Positions 949-20,081 are shown, counted from the stretch's first letter. The stretch: DNA of 20,081 nucleotides from Candidatus Cloacimonadota bacterium (GCA_028702025.1 JAQVPR010000035.1:1-20081), one strand, 5' to 3'. A program made the numbers and translations. Notes: a model not told the origin generated them from the letters alone.

Positions 949-3900
949 ATGTTATCAAGAGATTACAATAAAAGATTAAAAGAAACAACAGAAGAAAGAA
1001 AAAAGATTATCGATAACGTAACGAGATTGTATGTTTCGTTGTTAAAAAATGATAATACCATAACAACTAACGAAATCAATGTGTTGTATAGCTTGTTGAC
1101 AAATATTTTTAGAAAAGAATCTATTTCTTGGGAAGTTTATATCCGACAGATAATAGATAGCGAGATAAATCAAAATAAACAGAAATTAAAAAATAAAGAC
1201 ATTAAATCTGTTAATAACTCAATTTTGAATATTTGTGATCCGGCTATTATAGCTTTTTTAAATGAAAAATTAAGTGTTCTTGATAAAATAAGGATATTGT
1301 TAAGTTTGATTATTATGTCTTATTCTGACAATGATTTCACTATACAGGAAATTACCTTGATTATTGAGCTGGCGAAAAAACTTGATTTAGAAACAGATAG
1401 TTTTATGGAGATTATAAATGCTATAGAATATAAAACTTCTGATGCTGTTTCAATAAAGGGGTTTAGGCATCTTAATACAATCGATGATTCCATTTTTAGT
1501 GATTTCTTAGTATTTGGTAGAAGTGAAGAGTGTCAAATCCAGTTTAAAGATAGGTCTCTTAATCATATAGAACTTGTGATGTTTATGATAGATAAGTATA
1601 TTTTCATTGGTACAAATAATCGAGTAAATTCAAGGTTATATAATCAGGATAATAATTCCGAGATGCAGCTTGAACCTTTTGAATTATATTTAGTATCTAA
1701 AGCAAGTTCAATAAAAATAAGTGGACAGATATTTAATTATGATATACTTTGCAAAATATATAATAATCAAGAGATTTATGATGTAATTGATTTTAAAAAG
1801 GTTGATTATGATTTTAAGATAATTAACAATAAGAACCGGCATACAATATTGTTAAGTAGAGGGACTTTTTATAAAAATGGTCAATCTATTCCAAAAAACA
1901 AATATGTTGATTTATTTTATGATGATTTGTTACAGATAAAGAGCTATGCTAATTTTTCTTTGATTGACGTAATAAGGGAAAGAAGTGAGATTGGAGTAGA
2001 AAATATTAATCCAAAAGAGCTATTTATAGAATATTATGATGGTTTTTTTTCGATTAGTAAGATAGAATCTGTTTCGACTATAGTATATATAGAAATAAAT
2101 AATAACAAATTTACTATTTATCCACCCAAAAAGAATTGGGATATATTTTTAAATAATAATAAAATCTCTGAACCTTCTCAATTTTATTTAAATACAGATA
2201 TTATAACAATTAATAAAAAGAATTTCCGAATTAATAATTTCTTTGATTTGGTTGAGATACCGTTTGAAATTGAGCATATAAATGTCTTAGATATTAAGCA
2301 TTATTTTTCTGATGGTAATATTGGTTTAGACAGCATTTCTTTTGATATTCAAAAGGGTGAGATTATTGGAGTAATGGGTCAATCGGGATGTGGAAAGTCA
2401 AGTCTTTTAAAGGCAATTTGTGGAGAAGTTTTCCCTACTTATGGTTCTGTATTATATGATGGTAAAGATTATTTTGAAAATATTAATTTTTATTCTCAGT
2501 TTGTTGGTTATGTCCCTCAGGATGACTTATTATTTTCTAATTTAACTGTGTATGAAAACTTGTATTATCGTGGTAAATTAAGAATACCTAAAATAACTAA
2601 TAGCTATTTAAAGCAGAAGATAGATAATATTTTGCTTAAAACTAATTTAATCCATAGAAAGAATACCAAAGTTGGAGATTTAAAAAATAAATTACTTAGC
2701 GGTGGCGAAAGAAAAAGATTAAATTTAGCACTTGAGTTATTATTTGACCCTACCATAATTATTTGTGATGAACCTACTTCCGGCTTAAGTTATTCTGATG
2801 CAGAACAAATCATTGATATACTTAGAAGTTTTTCTGAACAAGGTAAATTTGTTATTTTAACAATACACCAACCTAATACAAATGTTTTTCATAAGTTTGA
2901 TAAAATCTTATTAATGGATAAAGGTGGTAAGCAAGTTTTTTATGGTCAGCCTTCAGAAGTCTGGACCTATTTTGATGTTGAATATGAGCAGATCAGTTTT
3001 AACAAAGAATTAATAACGCAAAAGAAAGAAGAACGTTTGCCTGAGTATGTAAATATAATTATTGAATATCCCGAATATAGAGAAAATGGTGAGATTGTTT
3101 ATGAGCAACAAGCTCAAAATCTTATGGTTAAAAGAAAGTTTCCTCCTGAATATTGGCGAGATAAGTATAAAAGAAAGATGCTTTTTGATTTAATACAATT
3201 TGACTCTATGCGGGCAAAATCTAATAAACCTCCGGTTAAGCAAAGAAAGAAGATAGATTTTAATGCTAAGTTAACTCAGTTTTGGACATTTTTTAAGCGT
3301 AATCTAATAATGAAACTTAGAAATAAATTAAATCTTTTAATTACGTTCGGAGAGGCACCGTTATTAGGAATAATTATTGCCTTTATCTTAAGATTAGCAC
3401 CTTCAGGCGAGTCATATTCTTTTAATCAAAATATAAACATAGGTATATATATTTTTATCTCGGTAATTGTCTTTATTTTTTTAGGAATGTCTAACAGTAT
3501 GGAAGAAATTTTATCCGAAAGAAAAAGTATATTAAGAGAGAAAATGCTTAATCTGAGAATGACATATTTTTTAGGTTCCAAGATAGGTGTTTTGTGCTTA
3601 TTTTCTTTTATGCAGGTATTCTTGTATCTTTCGGTTTCAAGTGTAATCTTGTCAGTAAAAGGTGTTTTCTTAATTTATTTTGTTTATTTATTTATTGCTT
3701 CGCTTATTGGGTCTTCTCTTGGCGTATTGATTTCTTCGTTTTTAAGTGATGTTAAGTCAGTGATAAACATATTACCTTTGATTTTAATACCGCAAATTAT
3801 ATTTGGTGGTGCGATAGTTGAGTATGAGAAGATGAATCGTCAATTGAAGTTAATAGATAACAATCCTATTCCTGAAATCGTGCAAATTATGCCTTCAAGA

Positions 3901-4335
3901 TGGATTTTTGAGGGGCTTTATACAGCTCAAGCAAAGTTAAATCCATACGATAAAAAAATAAATAAAATTGATAAGCTAAGAAAAAATCTAGTGAGTACAT
4001 CTAACAATTATTCAAAAGATTTAAGTGATTTATATAAGCAAATAAATGTTGTTAATACAAGGTATCCTAAATCAAAATATAACAATGAATACATAAATCT
4101 TTCTGTAAATATAATGGATGGAAGATTTCTTAATAGTGGTTCAATTTCACCGGATAATAACAGTAAGCGACCTGTGAATGTATTTCTATCTTCTATGAAA
4201 ATTATTAAAGGGATTCCATTACTTAAAGATAAGATTATCCCTACATATATTTATAATATTATAATTATAATGTTTTTTACTCTTGTAATAAATACTGCAA
4301 CCCTATTAAAAATTAAGTATTTTTACAAGGAGTAA
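949..4335 (+). CDS. Fused ABC transporter, ATPase plus ABC-2/ABCG-type permease, with an N-terminal TerB-like region and FHA-like domain(s)
   Basis: Walker A is GQSGCGKS (nt 2377-2400). The ABC signature is LSGGERKR (from nt 2695), followed by Walker B IIICDEPTSGLS and an H-loop (LTIHQP). The C-terminal half is hydrophobic with multiple TM helices (NBD-then-TMD order, ABC-2/ABCG-like), with a long hydrophilic loop before the last helix. At the N-terminus, LLSLIIMSYSDNDFTIQEITLIIELAKKLDLETDSF resembles the TerB-like repeat pattern. FGRSEECQIQFKDRSLNHIEL carries the FHA G-R...S-x-x-H signature. Confidence 0.85.
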   Translation: MLSRDYNKRLKETTEERKKIIDNVTRLYVSLLKNDNTITTNEINVLYSLLTNIFRKESISWEVYIRQIIDSEINQNKQKLKNKDIKSVNNSILNICDPAIIAFLNEKLSVLDKIRILLSLIIMSYSDNDFTIQEITLIIELAKKLDLETDSFMEIINAIEYKTSDAVSIKGFRHLNTIDDSIFSDFLVFGRSEECQIQFKDRSLNHIELVMFMIDKYIFIGTNNRVNSRLYNQDNNSEMQLEPFELYLVSKASSIKISGQIFNYDILCKIYNNQEIYDVIDFKKVDYDFKIINNKNRHTILLSRGTFYKNGQSIPKNKYVDLFYDDLLQIKSYANFSLIDVIRERSEIGVENINPKELFIEYYDGFFSISKIESVSTIVYIEINNNKFTIYPPKKNWDIFLNNNKISEPSQFYLNTDIITINKKNFRINNFFDLVEIPFEIEHINVLDIKHYFSDGNIGLDSISFDIQKGEIIGVMGQSGCGKSSLLKAICGEVFPTYGSVLYDGKDYFENINFYSQFVGYVPQDDLLFSNLTVYENLYYRGKLRIPKITNSYLKQKIDNILLKTNLIHRKNTKVGDLKNKLLSGGERKRLNLALELLFDPTIIICDEPTSGLSYSDAEQIIDILRSFSEQGKFVILTIHQPNTNVFHKFDKILLMDKGGKQVFYGQPSEVWTYFDVEYEQISFNKELITQKKEERLPEYVNIIIEYPEYRENGEIVYEQQAQNLMVKRKFPPEYWRDKYKRKMLFDLIQFDSMRAKSNKPPVKQRKKIDFNAKLTQFWTFFKRNLIMKLRNKLNLLITFGEAPLLGIIIAFILRLAPSGESYSFNQNINIGIYIFISVIVFIFLGMSNSMEEILSERKSILREKMLNLRMTYFLGSKIGVLCLFSFMQVFLYLSVSSVILSVKGVFLIYFVYLFIASLIGSSLGVLISSFLSDVKSVINILPLILIPQIIFGGAIVEYEKMNRQLKLIDNNPIPEIVQIMPSRWIFEGLYTAQAKLNPYDKKINKIDKLRKNLVSTSNNYSKDLSDLYKQINVVNTRYPKSKYNNEYINLSVNIMDGRFLNSGSISPDNNSKRPVNVFLSSMKIIKGIPLLKDKIIPTYIYNIIIIMFFTLVINTATLLKIKYFYKE

Positions 4336-4336
4336 A

Positions 4337-5452
4337 ATGAATCCAACTATATATTTGAGTGTAGTACTTATATTTTTTACTTTGTGTATGAGTAGGTTAT
4401 TATTTAAAAAAAGATTTAAGTTTCAAAATAAGAATTTGTCGGTAAATAAGTTTTCTATAGTTATTTCGTGTAGAAATGAGGCACATAATTTAGTTCATTT
4501 GTTTGATTCTTTACAAAAACTTCATTATTCTCAATCATTATATGAAATAATGTTTATAGATGATCATTCTACAGATGAAACGTTTGATTTATTGACTAAA
4601 TTTTGTGTAAAATCAGTTAATTATCATGCTTATAGGTTGTCAGGTATAAGTCAGGGCAAAAAGTTTGCTTTGCAAAAAGGGATTTCTTATGCTCAAAATG
4701 ATTGGATTGTGTTTACAGATGCTGATTGTATTGTGCATTGTGATTGGTTAGATTCGATAGATTTTATGATACAAAAAGATAAGTTAAATTTAATCTCAAT
4801 GTATATTGGATATTCTCCGGAAGAGAGATTAAAGAATATATCATATTTAGTAGCTTCATTTAGATATTTTAAGCAATTAGTTTCAGCATTTATTTATGCT
4901 TCAAGTACTATGGCAGGTTATCCATTTAGTTGTACTGCACGAAATTTAATTTTTAAAAAGAGTGCATTTAATACTGTTGGAGGATATAGTGAATTCCTTA
5001 ATGCTGATGACAATTTATTAAATAAATTTTCCGGTGATGACAAACTTCTTTTAAAGAAATTTCTTGGTCATAAACAGAAGATATCTTATCTGCCATATCC
5101 ACCGATTTATACAAAGGCAGTTAATGATAACTCTGTAAAAAATCAAGATTTGAGACGGTACGGAAAATTTTCAATGTCATCATTATTATGGCAGATAATT
5201 ATGTTAATTATCGGCTTATGCTTAGTTTATATCCCAATAGAAATAGTGTTTATTAAACAGTCTTATCCGGAATTAGGACTTTTTCTTTTTAGTTTAGTTT
5301 TTTTTTCTTTTATAGGATGTTTAGTTCACAGGGAAAAATTTTATTTAGAATATATTATCTTTAGTATCTTTTTCCCTTATTATTTGATTTATAAAATGAT
5401 TAAAGCAAGGTTTTGCAAATGGACTTGGAAAAACAGAAGACTCACTATATAA
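4337..5452 (+). CDS. Family 2 glycosyltransferase (GT-A fold) with N- and C-terminal TM segments
   Basis: FSIVISCRNEAHNL...IMFIDDHSTDET is a typical GT2 N-terminal nucleotide-sugar binding region. A DxD-type motif follows (FTDADC), then a hydrophobic C-terminus. AAGGAG lies just upstream of the ATG, inside the end of the ABC gene, and the ATG is 1 nt after the ABC stop. Confidence 0.8.
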   Translation: MNPTIYLSVVLIFFTLCMSRLLFKKRFKFQNKNLSVNKFSIVISCRNEAHNLVHLFDSLQKLHYSQSLYEIMFIDDHSTDETFDLLTKFCVKSVNYHAYRLSGISQGKKFALQKGISYAQNDWIVFTDADCIVHCDWLDSIDFMIQKDKLNLISMYIGYSPEERLKNISYLVASFRYFKQLVSAFIYASSTMAGYPFSCTARNLIFKKSAFNTVGGYSEFLNADDNLLNKFSGDDKLLLKKFLGHKQKISYLPYPPIYTKAVNDNSVKNQDLRRYGKFSMSSLLWQIIMLIIGLCLVYIPIEIVFIKQSYPELGLFLFSLVFFSFIGCLVHREKFYLEYIIFSIFFPYYLIYKMIKARFCKWTWKNRRLTI

Positions 5453-6342
5453 AAAGATTATACCTTTATATAAAGGATAACCCTTATAAAAATTATTTCA
5501 AGATTTTACTATCTGTTATTATATTAGTAATTATTTTCTTTAAGATTAAAAATACCTCAGATATCGGCAATGTCTTTTTACCTATTATCAAAACCACTTC
5601 AGTGAAATCATTAGTAATGCTATTATTAATATCCGTAATGAAGTTTTTTACTCAGGTATTTAATTGGTATTATGTTTTAAAAATTAATCAAGACTATGAT
5701 TGTACTTTCAGGCAAGTGATTAAAACGCATACTATTGGATTAGCTTTAAGGTTTTTTATGCCGGGAGGGCATGCAACTTTTGGTAAAGTCTTTTATATTA
5801 ATCCTGATAAAAAAAAGGAAACATTCTTTTCAATAATTGCAGAAAAGTTTTTTCAGTCTTGGATTATATGGTTTTTTGCAATATGGTCATTTTTGTTTTA
5901 TTATGATAAGAACTATTTATTGGTTTTATTCATAGCTCTTTTGATAACTTTTGTTCCATTTATAATTCCGAAAATATTTAAAAGACATATACCGTATATG
6001 ACAATTTTTAATTATTATAAGATTTTACCTAAGGTTATTTTATCACAGATTTTATTTGTGTTTATGACCTTTATTCAGTATTATTTAATTCTTTCTCAAC
6101 TTACTCAAATAAGGTTTTTTAATACAGCAATATCGGTATCATTAATACTTGTGGCAAATACGATACCGATTACATTTAGTGGGCTTGGTTTAAGAGAAAC
6201 AGCTGCAACGATTGTATTGCCAAAGTATGGTATTCCAATAGAATTAGCTGTTGGTACTTCACTTTGTATTTTTGTATTAAATTCTGTTATTCCTGCTTTA
6301 CCGGGAGTATTTTTAATAAGTTCTAAGAATAAAGGAAAGTAA
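5413..6342 (+). CDS. LPG-synthase-TM / UPF0104 'flippase-like' integral membrane protein (paralog 1)
   Basis: The protein is polytopic and about 300 aa. It carries the family-typical late motif P-x-T-x-S-G-L-G-L-R-E (IPITFSGLGLRETAATIVL) and a mid-protein LALRFFMPGG segment. It overlaps the GT2 gene by 40 nt if the first ATG is used, or 34 nt from the second. The exact start is uncertain. Confidence 0.6.
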   Translation: MQMDLEKQKTHYIKRLYLYIKDNPYKNYFKILLSVIILVIIFFKIKNTSDIGNVFLPIIKTTSVKSLVMLLLISVMKFFTQVFNWYYVLKINQDYDCTFRQVIKTHTIGLALRFFMPGGHATFGKVFYINPDKKKETFFSIIAEKFFQSWIIWFFAIWSFLFYYDKNYLLVLFIALLITFVPFIIPKIFKRHIPYMTIFNYYKILPKVILSQILFVFMTFIQYYLILSQLTQIRFFNTAISVSLILVANTIPITFSGLGLRETAATIVLPKYGIPIELAVGTSLCIFVLNSVIPALPGVFLISSKNKGK

Positions 6343-7113: not shown

Positions 7114-7241
7114 AAGTTTATCTACGTTAAATAATCGTTATTTTGAACTGATTTTGAAGAATAAATCTATTATGATAACTTTTTAACTAACTAATTGAAG
7201 TATAGTTAGTTATATATAATTTACTTATAACCAAATTATAA

Positions 7242-7279
7242 GGGACCTCCAAGATGCTTTTGACCATCTTGGAGGTCCC
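7242..7279. other. Perfect 15-bp GC-rich inverted repeat (hairpin) with an 8-nt loop; possible operon-end terminator or structured RNA/REP-like element
   Basis: GGGACCTCCAAGATG (7242-7256), loop CTTTTGAC, CATCTTGGAGGTCCC (7265-7279). It stands out strongly against the AT-rich background. The T-run (7300-7305) begins about 20 nt after the stem rather than immediately, so it is not a canonical intrinsic terminator. Confidence 0.35.
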
Positions 7280-7455
7280 CGGTATCTCGATGGATGATGT
7301 TTTTTAACTAATTTTATCAATCACACTAAAATAATTGTATATAATAATTGATATTTCGGGATAAATCTAAAGTAATTATTTTGAAATAAGAAAATGAAAA
7401 AGGAGTGGTTTTTAATATTTTCAACTACAGGATTTTAACATTTAAAAAAAATATA

Positions 7456-10732: not shown

Positions 10733-10751
10733 AGGAGGCTAAACGCCTCCT
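10733..10751 (+). terminator. Short stem-loop just after the thrS stop; weak terminator or attenuating structure
   Basis: AGGAGGC (10733-10739), loop TAAAC, GCCTCCT (10745-10751). No U-tract follows it (CACTTGTTC), so it is at best a partial terminator or an RNA-stability element. Confidence 0.25.
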
Positions 10752-10769: not shown

Positions 10770-11735
10770 ATGAATATTATTGATATTATAAAAAAAGAAA
10801 TGCACACCGAAGCTGAAGCAATCAAAATTGCTTCTGAAAAGATTGATGTTTCAATAGAAAAAGCTGTACATTATATTTTACAATGTAAAGGTAAGGTAGT
10901 AACTACAGGAATGGGCAAATCCGGACTTATAGCAAGAAAGATTTCTGCTACTTTTGCCTCTACCGGAACAACCTCAATATTTTTACATCCTGCTGAAGGT
11001 ATTCATGGTGATCTGGGAATGCTTCAAAAAGGAGATGTAGTCCTTGCTTTGTCTCATAGTGGGAATACTCAGGAATTAATCTCAATTATTCCTTATATAA
11101 AGTTTAATAAAATACCTTTAATTTCAATTACCGGCAATGTGACTTCTAATTTAGCAAAGAATTCAGATGTTGTGATTGATTCTTTTGTAGATAAGGAATG
11201 TGAACCCTTTGGATTAGTTCCAACCGCAAGTACAACAGTTCAACTTTCAATTGGAGATGCTTTAGCTGTATCAGTTTTGAAAATGAAAGATTTTAAGGTA
11301 ACAGATTTTGCTCTCTTTCATCCCGGAGGAACTATTGGGAAGAAATTATTACTTAAAGTAGCTGATTTAATGCATACAGGAAAGGCAAATCCCATCGTTA
11401 CTGATAAAGAAAATATGCAGAATGTGATTTTAGAGATGACTTCTAAAGGACTCGGTTGTACGAATGTTATTGATGATGACGGAAAGCTTGTCGGTATTGT
11501 AACTGATGGGGATTTAAGAAGATTTTTGTCCTTGGGTTTAACAGATTTAAATATCAATGTAAAAGATGCAATGACTGTTTCACCTAAAAGAATGACTGCT
11601 GAAACCCTTGCTGTGGAAGCTTTAAATCTAATGGAAGAATGTAAAATTACAATGTTACCGATAATTGATCAAGAAGATAAACCTATTGGCATTTTACATA
11701 TGCACGATTTAATAAAATCAGGTGTTGTTTCTTGA
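10770..11735 (+). CDS. kdsD: KpsF/GutQ-family arabinose-5-phosphate isomerase (SIS domain plus tandem CBS)
   Basis: The SIS domain motif is VVTTGMGKSGLIARKISATFASTGTTSIFLHPAEGIHGDLGM, followed by SHSGNT. The C-terminus has two CBS modules (…VGIVTDGDLRR…, …PIGILHMHDLIK). Length and architecture are as in KdsD. Confidence 0.9.
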   Translation: MNIIDIIKKEMHTEAEAIKIASEKIDVSIEKAVHYILQCKGKVVTTGMGKSGLIARKISATFASTGTTSIFLHPAEGIHGDLGMLQKGDVVLALSHSGNTQELISIIPYIKFNKIPLISITGNVTSNLAKNSDVVIDSFVDKECEPFGLVPTASTTVQLSIGDALAVSVLKMKDFKVTDFALFHPGGTIGKKLLLKVADLMHTGKANPIVTDKENMQNVILEMTSKGLGCTNVIDDDGKLVGIVTDGDLRRFLSLGLTDLNINVKDAMTVSPKRMTAETLAVEALNLMEECKITMLPIIDQEDKPIGILHMHDLIKSGVVS

Positions 11736-11758: not shown

Positions 11759-12793
11759 ATGAATAAGATTAATTTTTGTTTGATTGGGTGTGGAAGAATT
11801 TCTTCAAGGCATCTTGATGCCCTTAAATTGATTGATTCCGCTAATGTTTTAGCCTGTTGTGATATAGTTACTGAATTAGCCGAAGATACTGCTAAAAAGT
11901 ATAATATAAAGAATTTCTATACAAATTATAAAGAGATGCTGGAAATTGAACAGCCCAACGCAGTAATAATCTGTACTCCAAGCGGATTACACTCGGAAAT
12001 GGGTATATTCGCTGCAGAACATCATATAAATGTAATAACTGAAAAACCTGTTAGTATAAGCTTAAAACAAGCTGATTCTTTGATTAAAGCCTGTGATAAT
12101 AATAAAGTAAAGTTATTCGTTGTTAAACAAAATAGGCTTAATCAACCGATTCAATTACTTAAAAATGCTATAGATAAGGGAAGATTCGGAAAGATATTCA
12201 GTGTGAATTCTACTGTTAGATGGACAAGACCTCAGTCTTATTATGATTTATCAAAATGGAGAGGCACTTGGGAGTTTGATGGAGGTGCTTTTCTAAATCA
12301 GGCTTCACACTACTTTGACCTTTTATATTGGCTAATTGGACCGGTTGATTATGTTATGGCTACTACTGCAACTCTAAATCATAATATTGAAGTTGAAGAT
12401 TTAGGTGCAGGCATAATAAGATTTCGTAACGGAGTGATTGGTGTTATCGAAGTGACTATGAATATATTCCCAAGAAATCTTGAAGGATCTATAACTGTAA
12501 TGGGTGAGTATGGTACTGCTAAGATTGGTGGGATTGCTGTGAATAAAGTAGAACACTGGGAATTTAAAGATTATGATGATGATGATAGATTTATTGATAA
12601 TTTAAATACAAAGCCTCTCGATGTATATGGTTATGGGCATTTAGGCTTTTTAAGTAATGTCGTTGAGGTATTATTAGGTAAAGCAGAACCTAAAACTGAT
12701 GGAAGAGATGGACGAAAATCTCTTGAAATAATACTTGCAATGTATGAATCTGCTAAGATTGGCAAGAGAGTTTCTTTGCCGTTTAACCCTTAA
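11759..12793 (+). CDS. Gfo/Idh/MocA family NAD(P)-dependent oxidoreductase
   Basis: An N-terminal Rossmann motif is present (INFCLIGCGRISSRH), along with the family EKP motif (VITEKPVSISLKQA) and a C-terminal alpha/beta dimerisation-type domain. The substrate is not inferable. Confidence 0.85.
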   Translation: MNKINFCLIGCGRISSRHLDALKLIDSANVLACCDIVTELAEDTAKKYNIKNFYTNYKEMLEIEQPNAVIICTPSGLHSEMGIFAAEHHINVITEKPVSISLKQADSLIKACDNNKVKLFVVKQNRLNQPIQLLKNAIDKGRFGKIFSVNSTVRWTRPQSYYDLSKWRGTWEFDGGAFLNQASHYFDLLYWLIGPVDYVMATTATLNHNIEVEDLGAGIIRFRNGVIGVIEVTMNIFPRNLEGSITVMGEYGTAKIGGIAVNKVEHWEFKDYDDDDRFIDNLNTKPLDVYGYGHLGFLSNVVEVLLGKAEPKTDGRDGRKSLEIILAMYESAKIGKRVSLPFNP

Positions 12794-12815: not shown

Positions 12816-13703
12816 ATGTTACGTAATTATTTTGATACAAGAACTAAATTATTAGACGAAGCTTTGAAAAATTACTTAAACTATGATAAAGAGCAACCGG
12901 CTCAATTATATCAAGCTATGAAATACTCGATGTTTAGTGGGGGGAAAAGACTTAGACCTATATTGTTTTTTGCAACTTATGAAATGCTAATGCAAAAAGA
13001 TGATATTGAACTCATAAAACCATTTTTATCTGTTGGGTGTGCATTAGAGATGGTTCATAGTGCATCATTAATTCATGATGATTTGCCTTCTTTGGATAAT
13101 TCAAATGAACGACGTGGGTTACCAAGTTGTCATAAAAAATTTAATCCGGCTATAGCAATTCTTGCCGGTGATGCTCTTTTAACTAAAGCCTTTGAAATGA
13201 TGACTTTAGTAGAAGATAAAGAATTAGCAGTACATTTGGTATCAATACTTTGTAATGCTGTTTCAACACGAGGTATGTTAGGTGGACAAACTGTTGATGT
13301 TCTTTCCGCAGATAAGCAAGTATTACAGATAAATGTTTTAAAATATGTTCATTCAAAGAAAACAGGAGCTTTACTTGAAGCAGCAGTCAAGTGTGCTTGT
13401 GCATGTGCTTTTGTTGACCCTTCAGTTACGAACACCTTATCAACTTATGCGATGAATTTAGGCTTAGCATATCAAATAATTGATGATATCTTAGATGATG
13501 TTGGTGATTTTGAAACTTTAGGGAAAGAACCTTTTGAGGATGTTAAAAATCATAAGAAGACTTATCCTACTATTTTAGGGCTTGATAAAGCAAGAAAACT
13601 TGCAGATAAGTTATTAGAGGATTCATATAAACTTGTTAAAAATATGAAGAATAATGGAGTATTAGTAGAATTTGTTACAATGATAAAGGATAGGTTGCCA
13701 TAA
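12816..13703 (+). CDS. Short-chain trans-polyprenyl diphosphate synthase, probably geranylgeranyl-diphosphate synthase
   Basis: GGKRLRP is present. The first Asp-rich motif has the bacterial 2-residue insertion, DDLPSLDNSNERRG. It is followed by AILAGDAL, KTGAL, and the second Asp-rich motif IIDDILDD. A small residue (Ala83) sits at position -5 before the first motif, where FPP synthases have an aromatic residue. Confidence 0.9.
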   Translation: MLRNYFDTRTKLLDEALKNYLNYDKEQPAQLYQAMKYSMFSGGKRLRPILFFATYEMLMQKDDIELIKPFLSVGCALEMVHSASLIHDDLPSLDNSNERRGLPSCHKKFNPAIAILAGDALLTKAFEMMTLVEDKELAVHLVSILCNAVSTRGMLGGQTVDVLSADKQVLQINVLKYVHSKKTGALLEAAVKCACACAFVDPSVTNTLSTYAMNLGLAYQIIDDILDDVGDFETLGKEPFEDVKNHKKTYPTILGLDKARKLADKLLEDSYKLVKNMKNNGVLVEFVTMIKDRLP

Positions 13704-13704
13704 T

Positions 13705-14580
13705 TTGATAAATCTTTTCAAATTTATTAAAGCCGGAATAAAAATAATAAGATTGTATAATTGTTTATTTGTTTTATTTACTGTATTCTTAGGTGCTTTT
13801 TTTTTAAGTTTTGATACGAGTATGTCAATTTTATCTAAAATTCTTTTTGTAGGTGTATCAGCTTTTTTTATTGCTGCAGGGGGATATGTTATTAATGATG
13901 TTTATGATTATGAGATTGATAAGATAAATAAACCTAATAGAGTTTTACCGAGTAGAAAAATGAAGCTTAATACAGCTTATGTTTTTAGTATTTGTTTGTT
14001 TTTGATAGGTATAGTCTTTGCTATATTAACATATAATATATGGTGTATATTGATAGCATTGATAAATAGTATTTTACTTTATAATTATGCTAAACATTTT
14101 AAAAAGATTTTTTTAATCGGTAATCTTGTTGTAGCATGGAATGCGTCGTCAACGTTTATATTTGGAGCTTTAATAACCTTAAATCTCAAGAATATAATTT
14201 CTTTAGTATTGATTTCATTTTTTTATACTTTATTGCGAGAATTTATTAAGTGCATTGAGGATTACGAGGGAGATAAAGCAGATTCAGCAAAGACAATAAC
14301 TGTTCTATTAGGTTTGAGAAAGACATTATATTTAAGTTATATTCCTGCAATGATAACAGTGTTATCATTTAATCTTATGTATATTTTAAATCAAATTAGT
14401 ATTGAGCTTTTTTATATATTGAATATAATTATTGTTATACCGTTTATTGTATTTTATTATATTATGCATAAATCATTACATAGAGTAATTGTTGCAAATG
14501 TTCAGAAATATATGAAACTTAATATGTTGAGTGTTGTATTATTATATGTAGTATATGATTTTTTTAAAGTTCGAATATAA
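13705..14580 (+). CDS. UbiA-family membrane prenyltransferase, digeranylgeranylglyceryl-phosphate synthase (DGGGPS)-like
   Basis: The first Asp-rich motif, NDVYDYEIDKINKPNRVLPS, matches the ND-x-x-D-x-E-I-D-x-I-N-x-P-x-R-P-x-P-S pattern of archaeal DGGGPS and chlorophyll synthases. The second motif is IEDYEGDKADSAKTITV. About 8 TM segments are predicted. The start is TTG, 1 nt after the upstream stop. The conserved first helix (IRLYNCLFVLFTVFLGAF) lies upstream of the first in-frame ATG, which supports the TTG start. Confidence 0.8.
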   Translation: MINLFKFIKAGIKIIRLYNCLFVLFTVFLGAFFLSFDTSMSILSKILFVGVSAFFIAAGGYVINDVYDYEIDKINKPNRVLPSRKMKLNTAYVFSICLFLIGIVFAILTYNIWCILIALINSILLYNYAKHFKKIFLIGNLVVAWNASSTFIFGALITLNLKNIISLVLISFFYTLLREFIKCIEDYEGDKADSAKTITVLLGLRKTLYLSYIPAMITVLSFNLMYILNQISIELFYILNIIIVIPFIVFYYIMHKSLHRVIVANVQKYMKLNMLSVVLLYVVYDFFKVRI

Positions 14581-14603
14581 ATATTAGAAAGTATTGAGGA
14601 AAA

Positions 14604-15377
14604 ATGAAGAATAAAACCTATAAATATTTATTAGAATCCATAAAGGATAATCCGTCATATTTTTGTCTAATTGATCCTGATAAAGTAGAAGTCAATCAAG
14701 CACAAGAATTAGCTTGTTTATATGAAGAAAATGGTGCTGATTGTATTTTGATTGGTGGAAGTATGATGCTTAATGACAGGTTTTGTGAAGCAATAAAAGA
14801 GATTAAGATAAAATGTACAATACCTGTGATAATTTTCCCGGGAATATTTAATTTTGTTTCGCCTGATGCAGATGCTTTATTGTTATTAAATATGGTTAGT
14901 AGTAGAAATCCTCAGGTATTAATTAATGAGCAAGTTAGATCTGCACCTTTAATCTATAAATCTAAGTTAGAGACAATACCGACGGCTTATATGTTGATAG
15001 AATCCGGATGTATGTCTTCAGTTCAGTATATGAGTCATAGTTTGCCAATACCGAGAAAGAAAGCTGATATAGCTATAGTGCATGCTTTAGCTGCTCAGTA
15101 TCTTGTGATGAAGATTGTCTATTTGGAAGCAGGGAGTGGTGCAGAAAAGCAAGTTCCGAGTGAAATGATAATGAAAGTTCGAGAGCATATAGATATTCCG
15201 ATTATAGTGGGTGGAGGAATAAGGAAACCGGAATGTGCTGAAGAAAAAGCAAGAGCCGGTGCTGACTTTATAGTAACAGGTACTGTTTTGGAAGATTTAA
15301 AAAATCCTTGTTTAGTAAAAGAGTTTGCTCAAGCAGTACATAATGTAAAAAGGAATACAGATGATAGATATTCATAA
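14604..15377 (+). CDS. Geranylgeranylglyceryl-phosphate synthase (GGGPS/PcrB family TIM barrel)
   Basis: It aligns by eye with B. subtilis PcrB and archaeal GGGPS motifs: LIDPDK (vs KLDPNK), ILIGGS, YLEAGSGA (vs YLEYSG), IVGGGIR (vs YGGGIK) and ADFIVTGTVLED. At 257 aa it fits the longer 'group II' GGGPS type rather than the roughly 230-aa PcrB type. Confidence 0.9.
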   Translation: MKNKTYKYLLESIKDNPSYFCLIDPDKVEVNQAQELACLYEENGADCILIGGSMMLNDRFCEAIKEIKIKCTIPVIIFPGIFNFVSPDADALLLLNMVSSRNPQVLINEQVRSAPLIYKSKLETIPTAYMLIESGCMSSVQYMSHSLPIPRKKADIAIVHALAAQYLVMKIVYLEAGSGAEKQVPSEMIMKVREHIDIPIIVGGGIRKPECAEEKARAGADFIVTGTVLEDLKNPCLVKEFAQAVHNVKRNTDDRYS

Positions 15378-16143
15378 TCACATTTTACCGGGTATAGATG
15401 ATGGTTCTAGTGATGTTGAAACAACATATTCTTATTTAGATTTAATTGCTGAAGCAAAAATGAAAGCTGTAGTTTTTACACCACATTATATGAGAGGGTT
15501 TTATGATAATACTAAAGATGTAGTCTTAAAAAGTTTTAGATATGTTGAGGATTATGTCAAAGAAAAAGGGTATAATTATAATATTTATTGTTCTGCAGAG
15601 GTTTATCTGATGGGGGAGGAAGCGGTTAAGGATATACAGACTAATGCTTTTATGATAAATGGGACTCGTTATGTATTAGTGGAAAACAGTTTGACAGGTT
15701 TTTCAGATGATTTATTTGAAAATTTATATAAGATGACTAAATTGGGTTTGAAGCCGATATTAGCTCATCCGGAAAGATATATTGAGATACAAAGAAATCC
15801 TTCAATGGCTGAAGATTTTATGCATCGAGATGTTTATTTACAAATTAATAGCGGAAGTATTTTGGGTAGTTATGGAGAAAAAGTTAAGAATGTTGCTTTT
15901 GAGCTTATAGATAGAGGTTTTGCTCATTTCTTGGGTTCGGATTGTCATTGTCATTCCGGGGTTTATGATTACCCTCAGGCGGTGGAAGCATTAAGGCAAG
16001 AGTTTGATGAAGATACAGCAGAAGTTCTTTCTGAAGATCATCCTGAACGAATGTTGAACAATGAAAATATCCCGTATTTTTATGTTTTTCATCAACCCAA
16101 ACCACCTAAAAAGAACTTTATACAAAAGTTGTTTGGCTTATGA
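15361..16143 (+). CDS. PHP-domain metal-dependent phosphatase, CpsB/CapC/YwqE-like
   Basis: The N-terminus MIDIHNHILPGIDDGS is the hallmark of the CpsB/YwqE family. Later HPERY and GSDCH metal-ligand motifs are also present. The gene overlaps the 3' end of the GGGPS gene by 17 nt. Confidence 0.85.
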   Translation: MIDIHNHILPGIDDGSSDVETTYSYLDLIAEAKMKAVVFTPHYMRGFYDNTKDVVLKSFRYVEDYVKEKGYNYNIYCSAEVYLMGEEAVKDIQTNAFMINGTRYVLVENSLTGFSDDLFENLYKMTKLGLKPILAHPERYIEIQRNPSMAEDFMHRDVYLQINSGSILGSYGEKVKNVAFELIDRGFAHFLGSDCHCHSGVYDYPQAVEALRQEFDEDTAEVLSEDHPERMLNNENIPYFYVFHQPKPPKKNFIQKLFGL

Positions 16144-16177: not shown

Positions 16178-17248
16178 ATGAATATAGAAAATGATACAGC
16201 ATTTAATTTTGTTCAAGATTTACCTTCTGTGTTAATGACAGGAATTACGGGGTTTATTGGGAAACATACAGCATTAAAGATTATGAAGAAATATAATATA
16301 ACTGCATTAATCAGGCCGAATACTAAGAAAAAAAGATATACAGAATTTGAAAATGAGGTTAGATTAATTGAGCTTGATTTATCTGATAAGATGAAACTAC
16401 AAGAGTTTTTAGAAAAAAATAAATTTGATTTTATTTTGCACATTGGAGCTTTAAGAGGTGGTAGAGCTTTTAGTGCTGATGAATTTTTAAAAACAAATGT
16501 TGTAGCTACGGAAACCCTGTTAAATTATGCTGTAATAAATAATAGTAAGTTTATATTTTGTTCATCTGTAGGTGTGTTTGGTGCTATTCCGGTTGAATTA
16601 CCTGCTAATAATAACACTCCTTTTAAAGAGGATAATCTTTATCATAAAACCAAGATTATATGTGAAAAAATGATTCAAAAGGCTGTTTTGGATAAATCTT
16701 TAAAAGCCTATATTGTAAGACCTGCAATTACTTATGGTAAAGATGATTATGGATTTCCTTATACTTTAACAAAGTTAGTAGATAAGAGATTACTGTTTAT
16801 TCCTGATAAGAAAATATATATACATTTAACTAATGTTGACGCTCTTGCAGAGGCATTTAGTAAAATCTTAGAAAATGATTATCCTATTGGTAAAATCTGG
16901 ACTGTGGCAGATTACGAAAGAGTAAACTTTAATGACCTGATAGATTTTATTTATGAACGAATTGGTGATTATAAGAAATCAAAAATAAATCAAAAAAATG
17001 ATGATAATAATAAAACAGTAAATGATTTTAATAAGTATCCAAAATCTAGAGTTATAAGAAAAGAAGTCTTTGTTTTATTTACTAAATTAGCAAAGTTTTT
17101 TAAAAATGAGTTATGGACTTCAAGATTTGAATTAATATCAAATAGCTGGTATTATGATGTTAAACAGACATATGTTGATTTAAAACTTAAACAATACAAG
17201 ACGATTCCTGAATTTAAGGTTGTAGTTGATTGGTATTGTAAAAAATAA
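16178..17248 (+). CDS. NAD-dependent epimerase/dehydratase (extended SDR)
   Basis: The glycine-rich motif MTGITGFIGKH is present, with a catalytic Ser region (FCSSVGVFG) and Y-x-x-x-K (YHKTK). The C-terminal region contains an N/K-rich insertion. Confidence 0.85.
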   Translation: MNIENDTAFNFVQDLPSVLMTGITGFIGKHTALKIMKKYNITALIRPNTKKKRYTEFENEVRLIELDLSDKMKLQEFLEKNKFDFILHIGALRGGRAFSADEFLKTNVVATETLLNYAVINNSKFIFCSSVGVFGAIPVELPANNNTPFKEDNLYHKTKIICEKMIQKAVLDKSLKAYIVRPAITYGKDDYGFPYTLTKLVDKRLLFIPDKKIYIHLTNVDALAEAFSKILENDYPIGKIWTVADYERVNFNDLIDFIYERIGDYKKSKINQKNDDNNKTVNDFNKYPKSRVIRKEVFVLFTKLAKFFKNELWTSRFELISNSWYYDVKQTYVDLKLKQYKTIPEFKVVVDWYCKK

Positions 17249-17294: not shown

Positions 17295-18170
17295 ATGGCG
17301 ATACCGATTTTAGATTTTTGGAAAAAATATTATAGTAATCCTGATGAAGGTTTGGGCTCTACTTATGAAAGATTTATTATAAATGATATACTTGATAGAG
17401 TTGTTAAAGATTATGACATAAAATCTGTTTTAGAAGTTCCTTCATTTGGTTTTACCGGTTTATCGGGTATCAATAGTTTATGGCTTTCCTTAAATGGAAT
17501 GCAAGTAAATGTAGTTGATTCTGATAAGGAAAGATTAAACCTTGTTTCAGAGGTTTGGAATAAGATTGAATCAAAGTTGCATAATAAAATGTTAGCTGTA
17601 GATTTTACGTATTTAGAAAATTTTGATAAATTACCTTTTGATGATAATAGCTTTGATATGATATGGAATTTTTCTGCTATGTGGTTTGTACAAGATTTGG
17701 AGTTATTTTTATCTCAATTAGCTAATGTGTCTAAAAAAATAATCTTGATAATGGTTCCTAACAGAACAGGTTTAGGTTATTTACATCAGAAATATACAGG
17801 GAAAAAAGATTTATCTAAATATTTGATTGAAAACAATATAAAGAGTTCTGTTTTTATCCCGATACTCAAAAAATATGGATGGAATTTAATAGAAGATAAT
17901 TACTTAGATTGTCCGTTATGGCCAGATATTGGTATGAGTAAAGAAGATTTTTTAAGTAAACTTTTTTTGCGTAAAAAACCTGTCCCGAAATATAAAAAAA
18001 CAAAAGATGGAATAAGTATTATTGATTATTATATTGGAGCAAAACCTGAAATGAAATTATCATTAAACAAATATAAACTATTTGAAAATTTTGCTCCCGG
18101 TATCTTTAAAAAGATTTGGGCTCATCATCATTATTATCTTTTTGTTCCTGAGAAAAATAATAAAATATGA
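17295..18170 (+). CDS. Putative class I SAM-dependent methyltransferase (divergent)
   Basis: It has a Rossmann-like pattern: VLEVPSFGFTGLSG (a degenerate motif I), an acidic residue at the end of the next strand (VNVVDSD), FDMIWNFSAMWFV (motif II-like) and KKIILIMVPN. The motif I glycines are not canonical, so the call is tentative. Confidence 0.45.
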   Translation: MAIPILDFWKKYYSNPDEGLGSTYERFIINDILDRVVKDYDIKSVLEVPSFGFTGLSGINSLWLSLNGMQVNVVDSDKERLNLVSEVWNKIESKLHNKMLAVDFTYLENFDKLPFDDNSFDMIWNFSAMWFVQDLELFLSQLANVSKKIILIMVPNRTGLGYLHQKYTGKKDLSKYLIENNIKSSVFIPILKKYGWNLIEDNYLDCPLWPDIGMSKEDFLSKLFLRKKPVPKYKKTKDGISIIDYYIGAKPEMKLSLNKYKLFENFAPGIFKKIWAHHHYYLFVPEKNNKI

Positions 18171-19213
18171 AAATTATACAGAAAATTGTAATTAGTTTAA
18201 TTATAGGTACTTTATTAATTATTTTATGGTTAAGGTATATAGATTTTGCAGAATTATTATTTTATTTGAAACAGATAAATATCTTGCCTGTTATTCCTTC
18301 AATATTTTTTTATCTTATGTCATATTTTATTCGTTCCCAGAGGTTAAGAGCATTATTGTCGCACAAAACTATAATCCCTGTATTTAGAAATTACACTTAT
18401 GTTTTATCAGGAAATTTTGTTAATTATTTGATTCCTATTAGAGCGGGTGAAGTTATTAAGGCTTATTTTTATAAAAAAAATCATAACATAAAATGGGCAG
18501 AGTCTTTACCGTCAATCTTTATAGATAAATTTTTTGATACCTTTGCGATTTTTGTAGTTTTATTGTTAATTCCTTTTATTGGGATTACTCTTTCTGTGTA
18601 TTTAAAGCTATTGTTAGTAGTTTTAGTTTTGATTTTTATTTTAGGCTTTTTTATTTTATTTATGGCCTCTTTGAGAGAAAATAATAGGCTCGTTTTAGTT
18701 GATAAGAGTAAATTGAGTAGAGTTTATTTGATTATGAAAAGAATTTTTCATAAGTTACTTCTTTTATTGCCAATCAAATATAAAGATAAATTTTATGATT
18801 TTATTAAGCTTTTTTTGGAAGGTTTAGCTATTTTTAAAAATCATAAAAGGCTTTTTCCTGCTTGTTTGGTTTTAACACTTTTAGCGACTTTATCCGATAG
18901 TTTATTCTTTTTTTTAATGTTTAGAGCATTTAATGTACAAATAAATTTTGCATATATATTATTTGGTTATACACTGATATTTTTATCTTATATATTGCCT
19001 CATCCACCGGCACAAATTGGCAGTAATGAGGTTATAATGATTTTAATCTTTGCTATTGGATTTGGACTTGACGAAAACTTAGTTAGTGCAGTAATGTCAT
19101 TTTCTCATGTAATAACTGCTTTAGTGATTTTTATTACAGGGTCCTTGAGTTTAGCTTATGCCGGTATAAAATTAATAGACTTTATAAAAAATAAGGAGAT
19201 AGATAATGAATGA
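18167..19213 (+). CDS. LPG-synthase-TM / UPF0104 'flippase-like' integral membrane protein (paralog 2)
   Basis: The protein is polytopic and 348 aa. It carries the family-typical R-x-G-E motif after TM3 (IPIRAGEVIKAYF) and a late P-x-x-x-G-x-x-E motif (PHPPAQIGSNEVIMILI). It shares an ATGA start/stop overlap with the upstream gene. Confidence 0.65.
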   Translation: MKIIQKIVISLIIGTLLIILWLRYIDFAELLFYLKQINILPVIPSIFFYLMSYFIRSQRLRALLSHKTIIPVFRNYTYVLSGNFVNYLIPIRAGEVIKAYFYKKNHNIKWAESLPSIFIDKFFDTFAIFVVLLLIPFIGITLSVYLKLLLVVLVLIFILGFFILFMASLRENNRLVLVDKSKLSRVYLIMKRIFHKLLLLLPIKYKDKFYDFIKLFLEGLAIFKNHKRLFPACLVLTLLATLSDSLFFFLMFRAFNVQINFAYILFGYTLIFLSYILPHPPAQIGSNEVIMILIFAIGFGLDENLVSAVMSFSHVITALVIFITGSLSLAYAGIKLIDFIKNKEIDNE

Positions 19214-20081
19214 TGATAAGAAAAATTTAGAATTGTTGCAGTCACTGAAATCTGTAAAAGAATCAATTTTAATTCAGTTACATAAAGTTATAGTTGGACA
19301 AGATGAAGTAATCGAGCAAATTTTGATAGCTTTGTTTTCTAATGGTCATTGTTTAATTGAGGGAGTGCCCGGTCTTGCAAAGACTTTGATGATATCTTCT
19401 TTGTCAAAAATTTTAGATTTAAAATTTAGTAGGATACAGTTTACTCCGGACTTAATGCCCTCTGATATAACGGGTACTGAAATCTTGGTTGAAAATAAAG
19501 AAACCGGTCAAAGAGAATTTAAATACATTAAAGGACCTGTATTTTCAAATTTTATACTCGCTGATGAAATCAATAGAACCCCTCCTAAAACTCAATCTGC
19601 ATTACTACAAGCTATGCAGGAGTATGAGGTTACTGCCGGTAATGATACTTTTAAATTAGAACCTCCTTTCTTGGTCTTGGCAACTCAAAATCCTATTGAA
19701 CAAGAGGGTACATATCCTTTGCCCGAAGCACAACTTGATAGATTTATGTTTCATATCGTTATTGATTATCCTGACTTTGAACAAGAAAAAGATATTGTTA
19801 AACAAAGTTTTATTAGAAATAACACCATAAAAAATAAAGATAATACTATCCAATCTGTAATATCTAAAGAGCAAATTATTTCTATCCAACAAGCTATTAA
19901 TGATATCCCTGTTAATGATCACGTTATAGATTTTGCTGTTAAGTTGGTTAGAGCTAGTAGACCTAAAGCTAATGATGGGGATAGTCATATTTCTCCGGTA
20001 TTAAAAAGTATCAAAGAAAAAATTAACTGGGGTGCCGGTCCGAGAGCTTCACAGTTTTTAGTTATTGCTGCAAAAACAAGA
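19206..20081 (+). CDS. MoxR-family AAA+ ATPase, 3'-truncated by the window edge
   Basis: This ORF is absent from the supplied track because no stop codon is reached. Frame 3 from the ATG at 19206 reads MNDDKKNLELLQSLKSVKESILIQLHKVIVGQDEVIEQILIALFSNGHCLIEGVPGLAKTLMISSLSKILDLKFSRIQFTPDLMPSDITGTEI...ILADEINRTPPKTQSALLQAMQE...FLVLATQNPIEQEGTYPLPEAQLDRFMF...WGAGPRASQ. This is the classic MoxR (AAA_3) signature set. It overlaps the upstream stop by 8 nt. Confidence 0.9.
   Translation, partial: MNDDKKNLELLQSLKSVKESILIQLHKVIVGQDEVIEQILIALFSNGHCLIEGVPGLAKTLMISSLSKILDLKFSRIQFTPDLMPSDITGTEILVENKETGQREFKYIKGPVFSNFILADEINRTPPKTQSALLQAMQEYEVTAGNDTFKLEPPFLVLATQNPIEQEGTYPLPEAQLDRFMFHIVIDYPDFEQEKDIVKQSFIRNNTIKNKDNTIQSVISKEQIISIQQAINDIPVNDHVIDFAVKLVRASRPKANDGDSHISPVLKSIKEKINWGAGPRASQFLVIAAKTR

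Follow-up and report, generated by a model that had tools for sequence, protein, structure and literature searches.

A predicted archaeal-type diether-lipid core pathway in a Cloacimonadota contig and the genes conserved around it

In textbooks, isoprenoid glycerol ethers mark off archaeal from bacterial membranes, the 'lipid divide'. A 20,081-nucleotide (nt) stretch of DNA from a Candidatus Cloacimonadota bacterium (GCA_028702025.1, JAQVPR010000035.1:1-20081; the whole stretch is hereafter the window) carries three adjacent genes for a polyprenyl-diphosphate synthase, a UbiA-family prenyltransferase and a TIM barrel of the geranylgeranylglyceryl phosphate synthase (GGGPS)/PcrB family. Does this locus encode a route to an archaeal-type diether lipid in a bacterium, and what might the genes around it contribute? 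Judged from the encoded proteins, we consider it probable that the window holds an archaeal-type core pathway for diether lipids in its Cloacimonadota form, set in a tightly packed co-directional run of genes.

Core enzymes and their host

The core genes were first picked out in a first-pass annotation made from the sequence alone. Its coordinates for the three open reading frames (ORFs), and the gaps of 1 nt between synthase and UbiA and 23 nt between UbiA and GGGPS, agreed exactly with the ORF listing. The motifs that it quoted were all found in the translations (INDVYDYEIDKINKPNRVLPS and IEDYEGD in the UbiA protein; LIDPDK, YLEAGSGA and VGGGIR in the TIM barrel), and hidden Markov model searches upheld its polyprenyl_synt, UbiA and PcrB family assignments. 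Almost all large ORFs of the window lie on the + strand, and GC content is uniformly low throughout (~24-35%).

The TIM barrel is a group II GGGPS, with predicted activity. It passes the family profiles PF01884 (139.4 bits; cut-off 23.9), NF003198 (280.7; cut-off 247) and the GGGP model TIGR01769 (209; cut-off 161.55), and it scores 29 bits on the heptaprenylglyceryl-phosphate synthase (HepGPS) model. Its best structural matches are chains deposited as GGGPS (4jej, E 1.2e-48; 4mm1, E 1.9e-44; 6jo3, E 1.2e-43), which we take to be the enzymes of F. johnsoniae, M. thermautotrophicus and Thermoplasma, respectively. Far behind came the HepGP synthase structures 3vzx and 1viz at ~1e-6, and 2f6u, the group I enzyme of A. 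fulgidus, at 1e-4. With group II structures and TIGR01769 so far ahead, the barrel belongs with GGGPS, as first proposed, and a heptaprenyl-specific PcrB is ruled out. The window protein has the phosphate-binding and catalytic motifs DPD, E/D-x-GSG and GGGI, as do 83/83 related loci. Because a Tyr aligns with the Trp that forms the 'aromatic anchor' in the hexameric M. thermautotrophicus enzyme, the window GGGPS may be hexameric; the position is Tyr or Phe in relatives wherever it could be located, whereas dimeric Flavobacteriales enzymes carry charged residues there (PMC7888582). The same study describes the group I/II split and the Bacteroidetes members of group II, and the closest solved structure to the window GGGPS, that of F. 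johnsoniae, is bacterial, from the FCB group and of the C20-specific family (PMC7888582).

Among characterized relatives, the UbiA protein is closest to digeranylgeranylglyceryl phosphate (DGGGP) synthase (DGGGPS). It scores 114.1 bits on PF01040 (cut-off 34.2) and contains both Asp-rich motifs, NDVYDYEID and EDYEGD, which are kept in 65/67 and 62/67 orthologues. Its full length could be aligned with the DGGGPS structure 6m31 from M. jannaschii (E 2.2e-39; residues 7-283 against 7-278), and the next structures were a chlorophyll synthase (6.3e-7) and an A. fulgidus UbiA homologue (3.6e-3). All of the five top NCBIfam models are DGGGPS or archaeal prenyltransferase models, the best being PRK12882 at 190.7 bits, with the UbiA-other, ChlG and heme-o synthase models at ~60 bits or less, a margin of ~130 bits. 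These scores bear out the original reading of the protein as DGGGPS-like, and the margins in NCBIfam and the Protein Data Bank (PDB) led us to reject a chlorophyll synthase, MenA, UbiA or heme-o synthase.

The polyprenyl synthase (185.4 bits on PF00348) has both the first Asp-rich motif (FARM, DDLPSLD) and the second (SARM, DDILD). In type II short-chain synthases the residue at position -5 before the FARM sets chain length, and farnesyl diphosphate (FPP) synthases carry Tyr or Phe there. The window synthase has Ala at -5 and Ser at -4, and this pair recurs in 62/62 Cloacimonadota orthologues in which the FARM was found by pattern, plus three read by eye. Position -5 is Tyr in 3uca and 4f62, which are FPP synthase structures, and Met in 7mxz, deposited as a geranylgeranyl diphosphate (GGPP) synthase. 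Because of Ala at -5, under the chain-length rule, the product of this bacterial/plant-like type II enzyme is predicted to be longer than C15, most simply GGPP; the C20 preference suggested by the first-pass annotation agrees with non-aromatic residues found phylum-wide.

In the pathway that we favor, the synthase would elongate isopentenyl and dimethylallyl diphosphate to GGPP, the C20 product being read from its residues. The group II GGGPS would then form the first ether bond, joining GGPP and glycerol phosphate to give geranylgeranylglyceryl phosphate (GGGP), and the UbiA enzyme would transfer a second geranylgeranyl group from GGPP to GGGP, yielding DGGGP (unsaturated archaetidic acid). 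Head groups would be supplied by the usual CdsA/Pgs-type enzymes of bacteria, with genes outside the window. More speculatively, the downstream genes would dephosphorylate, modify and export the product. The activity of the window's own enzyme pair, and the fate and stereochemistry of its product in the native host, are inferred.

The host is bacterial. As the first-pass annotation had described, the flanks encode a bacterial-type ThrRS, a KpsF/GutQ-family isomerase (KdsD), DUF2851, a CpsB_CapC PHP phosphatase and MoxR; the ThrRS has TGS and tRNA_SAD domains and scores 725 bits on TIGR00418, over the cut-off. A protein 99% identical to the window GGGPS lies on a 74 kb ENA contig from another study (locus L001), and further GGGPS matches grade from 84% to 57% identity under the source labels Candidatus Cloacimonetes or Cloacimonadota. 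A scan of one genome per GTDB species yielded at least 80 loci, and 77/80 of the genome loci listed bear the label Cloacimonadota or an equivalent; the nearest species representative (L004) shares 62-94% protein identity across 12 syntenic genes. At NCBI, the exact window proteins are recorded as MDD4155772.1 (UbiA, 'geranylgeranylglycerol-phosphate geranylgeranyltransferase', that is, DGGGPS) and MDD4155773.1 (GGGPS/HepGPS), and a third, MDD4155775.1, is on the same contig of a metagenome-assembled genome (MAG), labelled 'Candidatus Cloacimonetes bacterium'. Since the best GGGPS matches, nearly all of the species-level loci and the NCBI MAG record are Cloacimonadota, a phylum of the FCB group, the contig is bacterial, as the first-pass annotation claimed, and not archaeal.

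These findings are not new in outline. Villanueva et al. (ISME J 2020/21, PMC7852524) reported co-localized GGGPS and DGGGPS genes in four Black Sea Cloacimonetes MAGs (NIOZ-UU1-4), confirmed the assembly with a PCR amplicon from the original water sample that spanned GGGPS, DGGGPS, polyprenyl synthase and PriA, and found all three genes transcribed in situ. Their purified Cloacimonetes GGGPS made GGGP from GGPP with glycerol-1-phosphate (G1P) and also with glycerol-3-phosphate (G3P), and archaeol with a phosphatidylglycerol head group (PG-archaeol) appeared in E. coli only when both the Cloacimonetes GGGPS and DGGGPS were present. They proposed bacterial CdsA/Pgs-type enzymes for the head groups and noted that GGGPS/DGGGPS co-localization among bacteria was seemingly restricted to Cloacimonetes (PMC7852524). 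A later preprint restates the ether-lipid trait for Cloacimonadota. The first-pass annotation had described the Black Sea pair and its ether lipids in E. coli correctly, so the finding itself is not novel: the core gene set and its activity are already published, and on the window contig PGAP already names two of the three core genes (GGGPS and DGGGPS).

Two comparisons place the window relative to characterized systems. NIOZ-UU4 has the same gene families in the same order, isoprenyl diphosphate synthase (IPPS)-UbiA-GGGPS-CpsB-SDR-methyltransferase-flippase-like-MoxR (SDR, short-chain dehydrogenase/reductase), and likewise no G1P dehydrogenase or CarS (CDP-archaeol synthase) in the neighborhood. 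The window differs in coming from another, very AT-rich lineage (window GC ~28%), with a GGGPS 55% identical to that of NIOZ-UU4, and in having thrS, a KdsD-like gene and a gene for a WlbA-like dehydrogenase ahead of the run. With the archaeal archaeol pathway (4mm1 and 6m31) it shares the two ether-bond enzyme families and their conserved motifs; unlike that pathway, it has a bacterial host, a lipopolysaccharide (LPS)-type gene context, a bacterial/plant type II synthase and no nearby G1P dehydrogenase, geranylgeranyl reductase (GGR) or CarS.

Several points weigh against a diether pathway in this host. Family searches of the window gave no G1P dehydrogenase, GGR or CarS, so that saturation by GGR has no gene in it and the first-pass annotation's word 'complete' is too strong. 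G1P dehydrogenase (egsA/araM) and CarS are missing from the published Cloacimonetes MAGs as well, and no ether lipid has been reported from any cultured member of the phylum (PMC7852524). The UbiA protein falls under the DGGGPS equivalog cut-offs (PRK12882, 190.7 vs 296; PRK12883, 132.2 vs 353; PRK12872.1-1, 76.3 vs 278) and is 42% identical to the syntenic NIOZ-UU4 gene, its nearest published Cloacimonetes homologue. Because the synthase also passes an FPP-synthase subfamily model, its chain length has to be read from the residue rules. Finally, the neighboring genes are of sugar-nucleotide or phosphatase type, which could mean a specialized glycoconjugate lipid and not a bulk membrane lipid.

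Conserved partners of GGGPS within and beyond the phylum

We compared the window proteins with species-level Cloacimonadota loci by tblastn, taking as denominators the loci with enough flanking sequence. UbiA adjoins GGGPS in 63/73 loci and the polyprenyl synthase does so in 61/70. The loci with the IPPS-UbiA-GGGPS order include one on a 1.84 Mb contig and that of the published NIOZ-UU4 MAG (L077). Because this order recurs in independent species-representative assemblies, the adjacency of the core genes is not chance.

Other genes of the run recur beside GGGPS too. The CpsB-like PHP phosphatase directly follows GGGPS in 72/73 loci, a tighter pairing than that of GGGPS with DGGGPS. The median gap between the end of the GGGPS alignment and the start of the phosphatase alignment is 3 nt, and the genes overlap by 17 nt in the window, 1 nt in L002 and 4 nt in both L003 and L086. 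An SDR adjoins in 64/66 loci, the methyltransferase in 57/60, MoxR in 49/51, and the sugar dehydrogenase of the GFO/IDH/MocA family in 44/67; the flippase-like LPG_synthase_TM protein was found in 35/55, a count that is probably too low, this being a divergent membrane protein. Ten loci have a GGGPS with no UbiA gene beside it (L010, L013, L014, L017, L019, L047, L056, L040, L055 and L060). These form a Cloacimonadales subset that also lacks an adjoining polyprenyl synthase, several of them on contigs of 1.3-3.9 Mb, and those with downstream sequence keep the phosphatase, SDR, MoxR and usually the methyltransferase. An extended operon of GGGPS, CpsB-like phosphatase, SDR, methyltransferase, flippase-like protein and MoxR is thus a modest new lead relative to the 2020 paper; the downstream phosphatase, SDR and methyltransferase have no mention in its main text or supplementary information (PMC7852524).

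Features of the run in the window (all coordinates counted from its first nucleotide)
Feature	Position	Strand	Length and start	Family evidence and remarks
KpsF/GutQ-family arabinose-5-phosphate isomerase (KdsD-like)	10770-11735	+		TIGR00393 312.7 bits (cut-off 203.7)
GFO/IDH/MocA NAD-dependent sugar dehydrogenase	11759-12793	+		PF01408/PF02894; directly upstream of synthase
Polyprenyl-diphosphate synthase	12816-13703	+	295 aa, ATG	PF00348 E 1.4e-54
UbiA-family protein	13705-14580	+	291 aa, TTG	PF01040 E 8.9e-33
GGGPS/PcrB TIM barrel	14604-15377	+	257 aa, ATG	PF01884 E 1.6e-40
CpsB/YwqE-like PHP metal phosphatase	15361-16143	+		PF19567 CpsB_CapC E 1.1e-47, 162.9 bits (cut-off 27)
Extended SDR (NAD-dependent epimerase/dehydratase fold)	16178-17248	+		PF01370 E 4.2e-29
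Class I S-adenosylmethionine-dependent methyltransferase (Methyltransf_11)	17295-18170	+		PF08241 E 6.6e-8
LPG_synthase_TM/flippase-like polytopic membrane protein	18167-19213	+		PF03706 E 5.7e-35; TIGR00374 91.1 bits (cut-off 43.2)
MoxR-type AAA+ ATPase, 5' part	19206-20081	+		runs off window end

The layout of the run suggests a single transcription unit. A terminator-like hairpin lies at 10733-10751, just past thrS and ahead of the KdsD-like gene, and no other terminator-like site was found over the rest of the window. The genes that follow one another between the KdsD-like gene and MoxR are spaced by 23, 22, 1, 23, -17, 34, 46, -4 and -8 nt. The KdsD-like gene is probably the first gene of this co-directional run, and we infer co-transcription of the run from there to MoxR. 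A promoter scan of the AT-rich window returned 63 sites against 72.5 expected, and Rfam and tRNA scans of the window gave no matches.

Upstream of the core, the KdsD-like gene adjoins the module solely in the closest relatives (L002, L004 and L005). The GFO/IDH/MocA protein is the most conserved of the neighborhood (56-84% identity between loci). In the PDB it matched 3q2i (E 4.8e-106) and 3q2k (E 1.4e-102), which we take to be WlbA UDP-GlcNAcA 3-dehydrogenases, an assignment for which a literature search gave no confirmation. The protein is therefore most likely a sugar-nucleotide enzyme, not a glycerol-phosphate dehydrogenase, and with matches at this level it is unlikely as a substitute G1P-forming dehydrogenase. 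No other enzymes of the di-N-acetyl-mannosaminuronic acid pathway are adjacent to its gene.

Downstream, the phosphatase is nearest, among characterized proteins, to YwqE (E 7.8e-30) and CpsB (E 5e-24), both protein-tyrosine phosphatases. Of 76 orthologues, 71-76 retain its four PHP metal-binding motifs (DxHxH, PH, HPER and SDxH), it misses the cut-off of the Cps4B equivalog (117 vs 400), and no BY-kinase or Wzz partner is encoded in the window or in L001-L003. The SDR reached the cut-off of no NCBIfam model. It belongs to a subfamily that is mainly from Cloacimonadota (nearly all the named matches among the 120 listed) and contains the motifs GxxGxxG and YxxxK along with an active-site string, 'CSS', like that of GalE. 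Its confident AF2 model (pLDDT 91.7) resembled, in Foldseek, NDP-sugar 4,6-dehydratases and 4-epimerases at TM ~0.7 and 14-21% identity; this fold match is compatible with a sugar-nucleotide, glycerol-phosphate or lipid substrate and cannot decide among them. A PDB sequence search with the methyltransferase found no informative relative (best E 1.5e-3). The full MoxR gene in the near-identical L001 encodes bpMoxR, AAA_3 and AAA_lid_2 domains. The first-pass annotation had called these downstream genes candidate tailoring genes: they are indeed conserved partners, but because their families resemble protein-phosphatase or sugar-nucleotide enzymes, a tailoring role is unproven.

Outside Cloacimonadota, we started from GGGPS of the Latescibacterota, Poribacteria and Caldithrix types and sampled their contexts in four look-ups and 80 metagenome loci. 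The commonest gene after GGGPS was a GmhA-like phosphoheptose isomerase (32/70 assignable loci). These GmhA-like proteins have ~195 residues and score 175-197 bits on NCBIfam gmhA, just below its cut-off of 209 (L093, L094, L098, L100, L102, L106 and ~26 more). A CpsB_CapC phosphatase follows GGGPS in ~14 non-Cloacimonadota loci, some Caldithrix- or Latescibacterota-labelled and others from unlabelled metagenomes, and the Latescibacterota-labelled junction has a 4-nt overlap. In two Poribacteria-like loci a His_Phos_1 (PGAM-type) phosphatase holds this place (L083, 10769-11380; L118, 846-1259), and it may be a non-orthologous replacement of the PHP phosphatase. Upstream, AlaS was the commonest gene, and the arrangements UbiA-GGR-GGGPS and LpxD-x-UbiA-SpoU-GGGPS were also seen. 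Neither the SDR nor the methyltransferase was found beside GGGPS in the sampled loci, so that only the phosphatase link extends beyond the phylum. Outside the phylum GGGPS repeatedly sits among LPS or sugar-phosphate genes.

Elsewhere in the window, genes for a family 2 glycosyltransferase (4337-5452) and a second LPG_synthase_TM flippase-like protein (5413-6342) share 40 nt. L001 has this pair as well, and a tblastn survey of other Cloacimonadota loci gave no match; to us it is reminiscent of the hopanoid genes HpnI and HpnL. At 949-4335 the window encodes a 1128-residue protein with an ABC ATPase (residues 460-611) and an ABC-2 membrane domain (776-990), ahead of which ~440 residues at the N terminus matched nothing in Pfam. 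A perfect, GC-rich hairpin of 16 bp (AGGGACCTCCAAGATG...CATCTTGGAGGTCCC; 7241-7280) lies in a very AT-rich 395-nt spacer between TauE and solute-binding-protein genes; it has a terminator score only on the - strand, where no gene ends, and no Rfam match. On the - strand at 19656-19988, a 110-residue ORF antisense to MoxR matched no family and is most likely spurious.

Competing readings of the core and its partners

We considered whether the core genes could be something other than they appear. That they are an assembly or binning artefact, or that the contig is archaeal, is suggested by nothing but the archaeal affinity of the two ether-bond enzymes and has a negligible probability: the same order occurs with bacterial ThrRS, KpsF/KdsD and MoxR in dozens of independent assemblies and on contigs of 1.8-3.9 Mb, the near-identical 74 kb contig comes from another study, the low GC is uniform, and the published scaffold was re-amplified (PMC7852524). 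Synteny in so many assemblies and on long contigs rules out archaeal origin or a chimeric assembly. A more substantial alternative, though still an unlikely one, is that the synthase is a housekeeping FPP synthase (IspA) beside ether-lipid genes, with GGPP made by another enzyme. The synthase passes the NCBIfam FPPsyn subfamily cut-off (286.6 vs 275) and fails the CrtE GGPPS equivalog cut-off (254.7 vs 460), and several of its top PDB matches are deposited as FPP synthases or geranyltranstransferases; however, its Ala at -5 is phylum-wide and not aromatic as in the aligned FPP synthase structures, and its gene ends 1 nt ahead of the DGGGPS gene and keeps its place in most loci. It is also very unlikely that the UbiA protein prenylates another acceptor in vivo while GGGPS makes a mono-ether only, as proposed for Bacteroidetes and Bacillales. 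The equivalog shortfalls, the ten loci with GGGPS and no adjacent UbiA, and the standing of UbiA as the least conserved gene of the cluster (36-62% identity between loci) speak for this, and they are outweighed by the NCBIfam margin, the E-values, which place DGGGPS over 30 orders of magnitude ahead of chlorophyll synthase and other UbiA structures, the full-length alignment to 6m31 with both Asp-rich motifs, and the finding that a Cloacimonetes pair from the same gene arrangement gave PG-archaeol only with both enzymes (PMC7852524).

A different set of readings accepts the core enzymes and concerns their product. By analogy, it is possible, if tentative, that the native end product is a minor specialized neutral lipid or glycolipid and not a CDP-activated phospholipid: the translationally coupled PHP phosphatase would dephosphorylate GGGP or DGGGP, and the SDR, methyltransferase and flippase-like protein would then modify and export it. 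The near-universal, overlapping GGGPS-phosphatase junction points this way, as do the persistence of the pair where IPPS and UbiA are not adjacent, its recurrence in Caldithrix-labelled, Latescibacterota-labelled and unlabelled metagenome loci, the unrelated His_Phos_1 phosphatase in the same position in Poribacteria-like loci, and the conserved catalytic motifs with no BY-kinase nearby. There is also a precedent in B. subtilis: heptaprenylglyceryl phosphate loses its phosphate there, and YvoF then acetylates the product (PMC9179154). Like the predicted route of the window, the B. subtilis PcrB pathway makes an archaeal-type G1P ether lipid in a bacterium, and its dephosphorylation step offers a functional analogy for the GGGPS-phosphatase pair; unlike the window GGGPS, which matches HepGPS weakly, PcrB is a group I, C35-specific enzyme of a mono-ether route, and the window has no YvoF-like acetyltransferase. 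Set against lipid processing are the protein-tyrosine phosphatases nearest to the PHP protein, the generic NDP-sugar epimerase/dehydratase fold of the SDR, the lack of a glycosyltransferase in the conserved core, and the GmhA-like isomerase after GGGPS in outside loci, which suggests a shared envelope-sugar neighborhood. The ether-lipid genes might indeed be merely embedded in such an envelope-sugar/LPS neighborhood, with its KdsD-, WlbA- and GmhA-like genes and LpxD, and the family assignments, the missing conserved glycosyltransferase and the GmhA pattern fit this too; we favor neither of the two.

A bolder proposal, which we hold to be rather improbable, treats the bacterial group II GGGPS and a phosphatase as an obligate pair whose partners in Cloacimonadota would provide the steps missing from published models and so make a self-contained bacterial route to an archaeol-like lipid. 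The PHP phosphatase would act on GGGP/DGGGP or on the glycerol-phosphate pool; the NAD-bound, GalE-like SDR would set stereochemistry, by G3P/G1P 2-epimerization or reduction at the level of dihydroxyacetone phosphate, in place of G1P dehydrogenase; and the last steps and export would fall to the methyltransferase and flippase-like protein. A search of a paper from 2026 on how bacterial PlsY/PlsC use G1P gave nothing on an alternative G1P source or on Cloacimonadota.

Implications for the lipid divide

Bacteria with both pathways bear on the origin of the lipid divide and on which organisms make the 'archaeal' lipid biomarkers of digesters and anoxic waters. It was the 2020 paper that established this significance, to which the window brings a further lineage carrying these genes. 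What the survey contributes are the names of the phylum-wide partners of GGGPS, namely the PHP phosphatase, SDR, methyltransferase and flippase-like protein, which bear on the source and stereochemistry of the glycerol phosphate and on the final form of the lipid. If the self-contained bacterial route were true, it would be a way to an archaeol-like lipid with enzymes that archaea do not use.

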